Of a stretch of DNA of 64,000 nt, positions 38,919-40,447 are shown piece by piece. Within the stretch, counting starts at the first letter, position 1. Each line of letters opens with the position of its first letter. The notes under the pieces were generated by a model that worked only from the letters and a program-made list of their open reading frames with translations, did not search any database and had not been told where the DNA came from. Source of the stretch: Chlamydiia bacterium (GTDB taxonomy: Bacteria > Chlamydiota > Chlamydiia > Chlamydiales > JAAKFQ01). The translations under genes and the position numbers were made by a program. The stretch spans positions 1,285-65,284 of the forward strand of contig JBDNIV010000013.1 of NCBI GenBank assembly GCA_041688145.1, read 5' to 3'.

Positions 38919-38927
38919 AGTTTTATG
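38919..38927 (+). repeat. Left copy of 9-bp direct repeat AGTTTTATG flanking the ATPase cassette
   Basis: Identical 9-mer at 40446-40454; AT-rich, so chance is possible. Confidence 0.35.
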
Positions 38928-40344
38928 ATTTATTAAGCATTTGGCTAAAGTCAATAATCTGTGCAAAAAAATCATCTTCAATAATACTATTCGCAACTCC
39001 ATTCACGTGAATAAGCACAGGGCGTATGGAGTAGCGTTTAGGAAAAGATAGCCTATTCACCTTCTCTTCTACTTCACGAATGATGCTTTTTGCTACAGGT
39101 GCACTGCTAAACTTGATTTCACAAACGTAAAGTCCGCTAAATCGTGTTTGTATGAGGTAGTCGATTTGGCAGCCTTGTGACCTATTTGTCTTAGTTTGGA
39201 AAAAAGGATTTTCAAACATAATATCTGTGGGGTCTATATGTAAAATTTCCCATATTGCTTTGCGGTTATTTAGCACTAAGTTTTCAAACTGCAAACCCAT
39301 AATCGCTTCCCAAGCAGGCAAGCGCCCCATAGATCCAGATTCAATTTTAGATCTATTAGGCTCGATGTATTTTAAGTAAAAGCGTGTGTAGTTATCGCTG
39401 AGTCTATAGCGACTGAGTTTGGATTTTTTACCCTCGCTCAAATGCCATGTATAGTCTCGAGATACAAAGCCTGCTGTCATAAGGTCATTGAGGTAAGAGC
39501 TAATAACACCTGTCTTGTATGTTTTCAGCGTTTTTTGGATCTGTTGTATAGTCAAAGGATGTAGAATTAAGTGCCTTGCAATTTCTGTGTAAATAATATG
39601 ACGCTTTGAAAATAGGTCGCTAAAAATATTTTCAAACTCTCGGTATAAAAGACCTCCAGATTGAAAACATAAGTCATGAATATTTTTCTCTGCAGAATGT
39701 GAGCAAACAATTTCTTCTAGATAGCGTGGAATCCCTCCACAAATAGAAAGGATTTTAAACTTTTCATAAGGGGAGGTCTGCTTCCGGTTTTTTCCCCAAA
39801 AAGCATTGCAGTCATTGAGTGGAAGAGGCTTTAAAACAAGATCTAAAGAAATGCGTCCTACAAATCCTGTATTGCTTAGAATATTTTTCTCTATCCAGCT
39901 CGAGATAGACCCTGATAAGATGAGTATAAGACGGGGATTTTTCTTAAACTTTGTGTCCCAAGCTGTTTTTAATTTACTTAAGAATGTGGGATCTTTAGAC
40001 CCCATCCAAGTAATTTCATCAAATACGATTAAGGTTCTTTTTTCTTGAGTAAAGCGTGAAAGCGTATGGAAAAGATCACCCCAGTCATCACTTCTGGGTG
40101 CTGGGATATTTAGTAAAGTCCCCATTTGACTAGCGAATTCTTCACGTTGCATATTAGCATTTACTCCTTTTTGTGGAGCAAGCCCTATAAACATGTAGTG
40201 ATTTTCAAACCCTTTTGCAAATTCTTCAGCGAGCCTGCTTTTGCCTATTCGGCGTCTGCCTCGAATAACAATTAGTTGGGCAATACTTTTTTTTAAAAGG
40301 CCCTGTAAAATGCCTAGCTCTTGCTTTCTGCCTATAAAGTCCAT
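38923..40344 (-). CDS. AAA+ ATPase (archaeal ATPase_2 type) with central helical/HTH region and C-terminal PD-(D/E)xK nuclease-like domain
   Basis: FIGRKQEL, GRRRIGKS, IVFDEI, SGS, GGIPRYL, QFENLV and QIDYL...CEIK motifs; AAAGGA SD before ATG 40344. Confidence 0.88.
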   Translation of the reverse strand: MDFIGRKQELGILQGLLKKSIAQLIVIRGRRRIGKSRLAEEFAKGFENHYMFIGLAPQKGVNANMQREEFASQMGTLLNIPAPRSDDWGDLFHTLSRFTQEKRTLIVFDEITWMGSKDPTFLSKLKTAWDTKFKKNPRLILILSGSISSWIEKNILSNTGFVGRISLDLVLKPLPLNDCNAFWGKNRKQTSPYEKFKILSICGGIPRYLEEIVCSHSAEKNIHDLCFQSGGLLYREFENIFSDLFSKRHIIYTEIARHLILHPLTIQQIQKTLKTYKTGVISSYLNDLMTAGFVSRDYTWHLSEGKKSKLSRYRLSDNYTRFYLKYIEPNRSKIESGSMGRLPAWEAIMGLQFENLVLNNRKAIWEILHIDPTDIMFENPFFQTKTNRSQGCQIDYLIQTRFSGLYVCEIKFSSAPVAKSIIREVEEKVNRLSFPKRYSIRPVLIHVNGVANSIIEDDFFAQIIDFSQMLNKS

Positions 40345-40355
40345 ATGTGTATTCC

Positions 40356-40392
40356 TTTGCACCAAATCGACATTTTGTCGATTTGGTGCAAA
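40356..40392. repeat. Perfect inverted repeat 1 (17-bp arms, 3-nt centre)
   Basis: TTTGCACCAAATCGACA-TTT-TGTCGATTTGGTGCAAA. Confidence 0.95.
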
Positions 40393-40410
40393 GTTTTCAA
40401 GGTTTAATTT

Positions 40411-40447
40411 CTTGCACCAAATCGACAAAATGTCGATTTGGTGCAAG
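40411..40447. repeat. Perfect inverted repeat 2 (17-bp arms, 3-nt centre), near copy of repeat 1
   Basis: CTTGCACCAAATCGACA-AAA-TGTCGATTTGGTGCAAG; 55-bp period from repeat 1. Confidence 0.95.

Follow-up and report, generated by a model that had tools for sequence, protein, structure and literature searches.

The question raised by this locus is what two long palindromes directly upstream of a single gene are for. The locus lies in a 64,000-nucleotide (nt) stretch of contig JBDNIV010000013.1 of a Chlamydiia bacterium (assembly GCA_041688145.1; the whole stretch is called the window), and the gene encodes a protein with an ATPase, a winged-helix and a predicted nuclease domain. Across its family, the one-gene ATPase / winged-helix / nuclease cassette was found to move together with a phased pair of operator-like inverted repeats (dyads), of which the palindromes are the example at this locus. 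Judged from the sequences, they are probably the operators of their own gene, read by the winged helix of its product, in an autoregulatory arrangement.

Paired palindromes upstream of the ATPase-nuclease gene

The gene and the elements of its upstream region were found at the following positions (aa, amino acids).

38923..40344, minus strand: gene encoding the ATPase / winged-helix / nuclease protein of 473 aa (PADLOC PDC-S27, Pfam ATPase_2)
40412..40446: distal operator-like dyad, TTGCACCAAATCGACA-TTT-TGTCGATTTGGTGCAA as read on the gene strand, centre 85 nt 5′ of the ATG
40357..40391: proximal operator-like dyad, same arms, centre AAA, 30 nt 5′ of the ATG; its right arm abuts the Shine-Dalgarno sequence
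40395..40400, minus strand: candidate −35 element TTGAAA, in the 20-bp spacer between the dyads
40372..40377, minus strand: candidate −10 element CAAAAT, at the centre of the proximal dyad
40353..40358, minus strand: Shine-Dalgarno sequence AAAGGA, read from the sequence, in overlap with the end of the proximal dyad

The open reading frame (ORF) runs from the ATG at 40344 to the stop at 38923, and a longer TTG-initiated ORF that would read through the palindromes was given no support by the homologues. The half-site 16-mer TTGCACCAAATCGACA was found in exactly four copies in the window, without a mismatch and arranged as two inverted pairs, at 40357-40372 (plus), 40376-40391 (minus), 40412-40427 (plus) and 40431-40446 (minus); six matches to it with at most three mismatches were present against 0.56 expected from shuffles. 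The four half-sites form two perfect 35-bp palindromes (40357-40391 and 40412-40446), which reach 37 bp when the flanking T/A or C/G is counted and lie 55 bp apart from centre to centre. On the gene strand, the upstream region was found to contain cTTGCACCAAATCGACAtttTGTCGATTTGGTGCAAg, 18 nt, tTTGCACCAAATCGACAaaaTGTCGATTTGGTGCAAa and GGAATACACAT in this order, followed by the ATG. The proximal 37-mer stops 11 nt short of the ATG, and its final bases overlap the AAAGGA. The twin repeats, their period and the arm running into the ribosome-binding site were thus present as the original prediction had described them. With centres at −85 and −30 from the ATG, the two dyads are the nearest to the start codon among the family loci scanned.

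With TTT at the gene-strand centre of the distal palindrome and AAA at that of the proximal one, either 35-mer is exactly reverse-complementary to the other. The prediction had drawn attention to these opposite centres; they are present here, and as a functional signal they did not stand, since they are not conserved: L053 and L077 were found to carry the same centre twice, and the centres of L075 and others vary. The sole sigma-70-like match upstream of the gene was the minus-strand TTGAAA (40400-40395), followed by a 17-nt spacer and CAAAAT (40377-40372), and its position makes it a plausible promoter.

Elsewhere in the assembly (1,275,035 bp in 51 contigs, 92% complete) the 16-mer was not found at two or fewer mismatches. 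The tally for the whole assembly was four half-sites, all of them here, one orphan dyad and one divergent pair at a paralogue. A dispersed repeat of the repetitive extragenic palindromic or miniature inverted-repeat transposable kind, which the prediction had named as the result that would count against it, was rejected on these counts, which do not show many copies scattered independently of the gene.

In a protein search, 7,974 matches at E ≤0.001 were obtained among 8,000 candidates scored, the best 120 of which were at 56-65% identity and mostly from environmental Chlamydiota. A scan of the genome collection gave 454 confirmed loci, and the best 80 were taken for the locus analyses; these were largely from Chlamydiota, with others from Dependentiae, Paracaedibacteraceae, Gammaproteobacteria, Verrucomicrobiota-labelled metagenome-assembled genomes (MAGs) and one Marinamargulisbacteria MAG. 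A dyad was scored where the outer nine positions of the 35-bp frame were symmetrical with at most one mismatch in the 200 nt upstream, and at least one dyad was found within 200 nt of the start in 65 of the 79 homologue loci. Upstream, dyads occurred at a density of 6.1 per kb, 13 times the 0.46 per kb of the other sequence in the same loci. Where two or three copies were present, they were spaced by 55 bp (11 cases), 54 bp (6 cases) or 54.5 bp (1 case), the 27-28 bp spacings in the list being trivial dyads from the facing arms of neighbouring copies. The prediction had proposed that such palindromes be sought upstream of related genes, and they were found there with a 54-55 bp pairing; upstream dyads were also found at further paralogues and at homologues of only 24-43% identity.

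The half-site was found to contain a common AAAT, often AAATCGACA, preceded by an outer part that varies by clade (TCACC, GCACC, TCCCC, TCAAC/ACAAC, TCCG[CT], GCAG[CT], CTG[CT] and others). Most of the family dyads overlap a promoter of the form TTGATT-N17-TAnnnT. In 29 of the 42 CAC-class loci the right arm of the proximal dyad was found to contain the −35 of a TTGAnn-N16-18-TAnnnT promoter, and in 28 of the 42 a third, single half-site ATCACCAAAT (cATCACCAAAt) was present about 20 nt before the start codon, beside the Shine-Dalgarno sequence. Many loci of other clades contained the same promoter pattern (nearly always TTGATT), with the −35 in or just past the right arm. The distance of the array to the start codon ranged from −17 to about −195 across loci. 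A layout close to the start, like that of the window, was found in L121, L122, L123, L075, L079 and the paralogue on contig C9 of the same assembly, and the hexamer at the centre of the proximal dyad was TATAAT in L121 and CAAAAT in L122. The only constant of these loci is the gene itself: the 389 flanking ORFs of the 80 loci fell into 355 clusters, and no conserved neighbouring gene was found, hence none that could supply another regulator.

These arrangements bear on whether the palindromes might act in RNA, as hairpins in the 5′ untranslated region for translation, mRNA stability or termination, which is very unlikely. The 131-nt upstream stretch does fold at −61 kcal/mol (z = −13), with the proximal stem finishing 3 nt before the Shine-Dalgarno sequence and the distal palindrome and its T-run resembling a terminator on the plus strand. 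In most relatives, however, the −35 lies inside the proximal right arm, so the dyad is not transcribed, and the clade-1 dyads contain 6-8 non-complementary central bases. Mismatches in the arms show no G-U bias on the sense strand, the half-site sequence itself is conserved beyond its pairing ability, and the conserved single half-site close to the ribosome-binding site suits protein binding and not an RNA hairpin. Use of the repeats as cruciforms, which the prediction had also allowed, was rejected as a general mechanism because the central 6-8 bp in the largest clade are not self-complementary; non-palindromic dyad centres were present in many relatives.

The second copy in this genome (G000; C9:48720-50135, 55% identity; gene and upstream span to 50230, locus L106) was found to be preceded by AATCAGCAAGCTGATAAAATGTCGATTTGCTGATT and AATCAGCAAATCGACAAACTGTCGATTTGCTGATT, a twin pair of dyads with a period of 54 bp and a proximal centre at −39; in L106 they lie at about 3650-3760 on the minus strand as ATCAGCAA...TTGCTGAT, and their sequence is of the form ATCAGCAAATCGACA.... 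Nine further paralogues in genomes G031, G032 and G034, down to 29% identity, each contained an upstream dyad of their own, with sequences all different, and a second dyad was present 51-55 bp away in seven of the nine. G032, the 3.4-Mb chlamydial genome of L029, contained nine matches to the protein, one of them with an internal TAG. There, L029 and the seven paralogues L119-L123, L126 and L127 were each found to have their own upstream dyads, paired at 51-55 bp in six of the seven paralogues, and comparison of these sequences suggests orthogonal self-operators inside one cell.

The distant homologues examined span 24-43% identity. A plasmid copy of Desulfosarcina BuS5 (43%) was found to contain a dyad and a half-site beside the ribosome-binding site. 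The copy of Wolbachia phage WO (28%; L109 at about 1394-1481, MN180249.1) contained two 38-nt repeats, 56 bp apart and ending 5 nt before the ATG, each of which is an ACCGCGG-N19-CCGCGGT dyad. The Rhodothermus copy (25%) contained a 35-bp dyad at −36 to −2, those of Butyrivibrio and Emticicia had TTGGCGGAAT...ATTCCGCCAA dyads in common, and upstream dyads were also present at the Halorubrum and Malaciobacter copies. Because paralogues, plasmid, phage and distant-taxon copies all carry dyads of their own, the upstream dyads are a trait of the gene family, not of a single host lineage.

The winged-helix protein and its residue 277

Whether the protein could itself read the dyads was approached through its domains, which were found as follows.

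40237..40260, minus strand: Walker A GRRRIGKS, residues 29-36; G29, R31, I33, G34, K35 and S36 invariant
40012..40026, minus strand: Walker B VFDEI, residues 107-111; D109 and E110 invariant
39397..39561, minus strand: winged-helix domain, residues ~262-316; recognition helix 278-291
39514-39516, minus strand: K277, the alignment column that best predicts the operator class
38926..39237, minus strand: C-terminal PD-(D/E)xK-fold domain, residues ~370-473
39160-39162, 39118-39120 and 39112-39114, minus strand: invariant D395, E409 and K411, predicted catalytic residues of the C-terminal domain

The N-terminus matched Pfam ATPase_2 (PF01637) at 41.1 bits against a cut-off of 33.2, as well as AAA_14, AAA_16 and AAA_22. 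A full-length match to PADLOC PDC-S27 was obtained (PDLC04984, E 7.4e-81, 270 bits, residues 2-463 against profile 3-466 of 474). No NCBIfam model matched above threshold, and faint Lrs14/Sta1-type helix-turn-helix (HTH) matches were present at residues 263-306. A search of the Protein Data Bank (PDB) sequences with the family profile gave no match, and only the fold search was productive.

[quoted passage not shown] Against the PDB, Foldseek matched it at probability 1.0 to NLR resistosomes, Apaf-1, a STAND-TPR protein, CED-4, MalT and Avs3, and also to PAB2304 and Orc/Cdc6; the Pyrococcus Walker-type ATPase PAB2304 (2qen) was the second-best match and had the highest target-normalised template-modelling (TM) score among the top matches, 0.66. 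The modelled order is nucleotide-binding domain, helical domain and winged helix, i.e. that of the STAND NOD module. The winged helix was modelled with helices at 266-273 and 278-291, followed by wing strands at 294-315. The Walker motifs, the helical or HTH-like region and the D..EIK motif of the original prediction were found to be present, the 'HTH' being the winged helix of this STAND/ORC-like module.

Modelled alone (residues 336-473, pLDDT 92), the C-terminal domain matched NucS/EndoMS (E 4e-4, TM 0.53), SduA (Shedu), AF1548, MspJI, McrC and Can2/Card1 in Foldseek. The model gives it a restriction-endonuclease-like alpha/beta core, i.e. a predicted PD-(D/E)xK nuclease, and D395...E409-x-K411 was found to be invariant in sets of 27 and 29 family sequences. 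DUF234 is often fused to ATPase_2. The prediction had called the gene ATPase_2/DUF234-like, of which ATPase_2 stood and DUF234 did not: PF03008 gave no match in the whole protein, in its C-terminal 139 aa (E ≤10) or in 29 family members (E ≤1). Sub-threshold DUF4143, NERD or restriction-endonuclease (REase) matches were found in a few of the 29 members, that of DUF4143 in five, in the nuclease domain, with a best E of 0.017. No repeat-type sensor domain (TPR, WD40, LRR) was found in the model or in the Pfam scans, the nuclease domain being the last of the 473-aa protein.

The half-site class correlates with residue 277 of the protein, which is placed just before the recognition helix, at its N-terminus. 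When every column of the alignment was ranked by its mutual information with the operator class, columns 267, 277, 257 and 281 of the winged helix were among the highest. Residue 277 was the best single predictor of that class, with a purity of 0.88 and only 10 changes, on a tree for which the winged-helix columns had been left out. In the second large clade taken by itself, it ranked third by mutual information among 299 variable columns and near the top by normalised information. The correspondence was found to be as follows.

Residue 277 K: operator CAC
Residue 277 R: operator CCC
Residue 277 Q: operator CCG or CTG
Residue 277 L, I or V: operator CAA or CAG

The R/CCC pairing arose twice on the tree (in the main clade and in L077), and the Q/C[CT]G and hydrophobic/CA[AG] pairings recur in separate subclades. 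The nearest relative of the window protein, L031, contained the same GCACC variant. Paralogues outside the 80-locus set also fit (L119 and L120 with K/CAC, L124 with Q/CTG-CCG, L125 with L/CAA), and among such paralogues new operator classes accompany the new residues N, E, S and V. In the C9 paralogue the residue equivalent to K277 was found to be Y, with the operator CAG.

The same correspondence bears on whether an unrelated host regulator binds the dyads and the cassette is merely one member of its regulon, which is highly improbable. Such a regulator would account for same-class orphan dyads upstream of unrelated genes, for example TGCACCAAATCGATGAAACCTTGATTTGGTG, a GCACC-type dyad at G000 C47:6861-6889 (L105 2362-2390), which precedes by about 60 nt the gene of a 159-aa GNAT acetyltransferase and has no paralogue near; others were found in G032 and G034. 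Against it, the half-site class follows a residue of the ATPase itself, up to nine paralogues per genome have a different dyad each, and the association extends over Chlamydiota, Dependentiae, Alpha- and Gammaproteobacteria, Desulfobacterota, Bacteroidota, Bacillota, Rhodothermota and haloarchaea with the ATPase gene as the sole constant. The C47 orphan is possibly an extra target or the relic of a lost cassette. A link through GNAT genes was tried and rejected, the GNAT gene after the orphan dyad and the one beside the Butyrivibrio homologue being unrelated.

Probable autoregulation and the insertion of the cassette

Under autoregulation, a dimer would place its two winged helices on the outer segments of each 35-bp dyad, at a separation of about 25 bp (GCACC-AAAT in this case). 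The variable bases would be read by residue 277; the inner AAATCGACA and the A/T centre are shared by many clades. A distance of 54-55 bp (about 5.2 helical turns) puts both dyads on the same face of the DNA, and the pair would be occupied cooperatively. In the window, the likely −10, the start site of transcription and the margin of the ribosome-binding site would be covered by the proximal dyad, whose occupancy would accordingly shut off transcription. Repression would keep the amount of a potentially toxic nuclease low and self-limited, and the cassette would bring its own control circuit when moving between genomes. An anti-phage role of the gene is a candidate label from the database only.

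Several points weigh against this reading. The strict dyad criterion was failed by 14 of the 79 loci, although degenerate versions were seen by eye in most of them. The original prediction had placed a promoter within the repeats, and TTGAAA-17-CAAAAT is indeed present; it is weak and could not be distinguished from chance, with five 9-of-12 promoter matches found against 5.3 in shuffles. The prediction had also proposed that the palindromes covary with the HTH, and the outer bases do track residue 277; the covariation is confounded by phylogeny, and independent pairs amount to only 2-3 contrasts per class, at which significance independent of phylogeny is unreachable. L066 was found to contain K277 with a CCCCCC half-site, its sister L081 containing K277 with CACC. 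The orphan dyads in G000, G034 and G032 mean that such sites also occur away from the gene. Finally, the winged helix of canonical STAND proteins does not bind DNA; the equivalent winged helix of Orc/Cdc6 does.

A quite unlikely alternative takes the array mainly as a platform on which the ATPase-nuclease is loaded, parked or made to sense as an ATP-dependent oligomer, autoregulation being a by-product. The systematic overlap with promoter elements and the occurrence of the array at one place only per gene copy speak against this, whereas the 54-55 bp phasing and the 35-bp footprint are kept more strictly than the distance to the start codon, the fold is ORC/STAND-like and the catalytic residues of the nuclease are invariant. 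A further view, less improbable than the platform alone and still doubtful, is that the family consists of sequence-programmable DNA readers with a residue-277 code, the array being a platform that would hold an ATP-dependent oligomer inactive until displacement or titration. The neighbours of residue 277 in the NOD winged helix would then also be part of the code, and up to nine mutually orthogonal copies would coexist in one genome, each paralogue with its own 35-bp dyad. Invading DNA, or a phage or plasmid factor, would displace or titrate the protein, de-repress the gene and release active nuclease. If true, the module would be a self-contained one-gene sense-and-respond or addiction system.

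The original prediction had inferred a one-gene cassette, and the 1.5-kb cassette indeed interrupts a conserved junction as an insertion of one gene. It is flanked by the convergent pair of an M50-like protease gene (37773-38918) and htrA (40647-42134). Five relatives of the order, including the only genome of the same family, were found to have M50 and htrA directly adjacent, with a gap of about 150-300 bp and no ATPase gene between; the closest genome available for the junction comparison has 40% identity in the neighbouring protein. The 3′ end of the cassette lies 4 bp from the stop of the M50-like gene, and no ORF was found between the htrA terminator and the ATPase gene. The cassette has a guanine-plus-cytosine (GC) content of 37.6% against 43-44% in the neighbours, with a similar GC at third codon positions. 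The ATPase-nuclease gene is horizontally acquired here. A direct repeat was found at its ends:

40446..40454, minus strand: 9-bp direct repeat CATAAAACT, upstream copy, abutting the distal dyad
38919..38927, minus strand: CATAAAACT, downstream copy, covering the last codon and the stop and ending at the stop of the convergent M50-like gene

The dyads might accordingly be read as DNA-level sites of mobility or recombination (integration, excision, element ends), and not or not only as operators. The insertion into the conserved junction, the CATAAAACT copies that bracket exactly the distal dyad and the stop codon, the highly variable contexts of a family that has crossed phyla, and orphan dyads within a repeated element in G034 all point this way. 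Three CACC dyads far from paralogues were found in G034 (L115 1480-1507, L116 1509-1536, L117 1545-1572) and one in G032; the three share a flanking repeat, ttgaaaagtgccgacgtttttatc, about 75-100 nt away, and two retain the downstream single half-site, which suggests cassette relics or a small repeated element. A flanking repeat of at least 9 bp, however, was found in 3 of 58 loci against 1.4% of mismatched control pairs, so the result for a family-wide target-site duplication is negative or underpowered, and the repeat in the window would arise by accident at about 1 in 70. The dyads are present at one end of the cassette only, no conserved recombinase or transposase was found nearby (80 loci), no identical multi-copy elements were seen, and the dyads are placed precisely over the −35, −10 and ribosome-binding site. 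Mobility sites are on this evidence distinctly improbable.

Of the surroundings, the following was observed. The dyad of L117 was found directly after a metallophosphoesterase gene, which itself follows an AbiEii-like gene (by eye). On the plus strand of the window, the distal palindrome followed by TTTTATGGGT (40411-40447) scores as an intrinsic terminator, which could halt read-through running antisense over the ATPase gene from the M50-like side towards htrA. The most recurrent neighbour in the 80 loci was a calcineurin-like metallophosphoesterase of about 179 aa, present in seven on the same strand and 12 nt past the ATPase stop (e.g. L012 2964-3503), followed by SoFic-like Fic genes (4 loci) and AAA_14-DUF4143 genes (3 loci). 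The phage WO homologue is annotated as 'archaeal ATPase fused to DUF234' and sits between head-tail connector genes. Close homologues (55-57% identity; L060, L062, L064, L068, L074) were found in Dependentiae, Gammaproteobacteria, Paracaedibacteraceae and Marinamargulisbacteria MAGs, and a distant one on plasmid CP008939.1 of Paracaedimonas acanthamoebae (L108). The taxon distribution suggests exchange among intracellular symbionts of protists, and the spread of the cassette over unrelated intracellular symbionts of amoebae and insects (Chlamydiota, Dependentiae, Paracaedibacteraceae, Wolbachia phage WO) extends the picture of genes being exchanged within eukaryotic hosts.

Comparison with known systems

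PDC-S27 is one of 145 untested PADLOC candidates (Payne et al., bioRxiv 10.1101/2024.01.29.577857). It is an ATPase fused to PD-(D/E)xK, with 3,503 archaeal and 4,562 bacterial copies in a 2026 survey, where it is among the ten most prevalent prokaryotic defence systems or candidates (PMC12988326). The window protein matches it over its full length and has the same domain fusion; the S27 papers examined describe no mechanism, regulation or DNA target, and mention neither self-operators nor a 54-55 bp pairing or residue-277 correspondence. No description of operators or autoregulation for PDC-S27 or this ATPase family was found in the open-access literature, and no functional study of the ATPase family was found in the literature under DUF234, PF01637 or PAB2304, DUF234 occurring only within a catalogue of PD-(D/E)xK proteins (PMC3424549). 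The phased self-operators and the one-residue correspondence are the first concrete molecular handle on the family, comprising a DNA ligand, a reading residue and a promoter architecture.

The ATPase_2 proteins PAB2304 (PDB 2qen) and SSO1545 are alike in fold, but the solved proteins have no C-terminal nuclease domain. We know of no function or operator for either. The AAA_14-DUF4143 ATPases are a distinct family; the N-terminus of the window protein matches AAA_14, and DUF4143 stays below threshold. With the STAND NTPases (Apaf-1, plant NLRs, Avs) it has the order of nucleotide-binding, helical and winged-helix domains in common, and with Avs a predicted nuclease effector, but it has no repeat-type sensor and carries its nuclease at the C-terminus. 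In MalT and IniR, DNA is bound by a separate LuxR-type HTH (PMC5760070); in the window protein the reader would be its own NOD winged helix. Orc1/Cdc6 (e.g. PDB 2qby) combines AAA+ and winged helix on dyad-arranged extended elements, and its fold matches to the window protein are significant; the TM is only about 0.3, and the window protein differs in having a nuclease domain, sites on its own promoter, no origin context and up to nine copies per genome.

A parallel in regulation is found in the promoters of restriction-modification C-proteins and of toxin-antitoxin systems, where paired dyads likewise lie over the promoter of a potentially toxic nuclease and specificities diverge among co-resident systems. 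Those systems use a separate small regulator, whereas the cassette in the window contains no second gene and its regulator would be the effector. If true, this would be an unusual case of a NOD winged helix as a sequence reader and of an effector regulating itself without a partner gene. Autoregulated nuclease and toxin genes are already known; what appears to be new, as read from the sequences, is an effector that would regulate itself through a STAND/ORC-like winged helix with an apparently simple, diversifying code.

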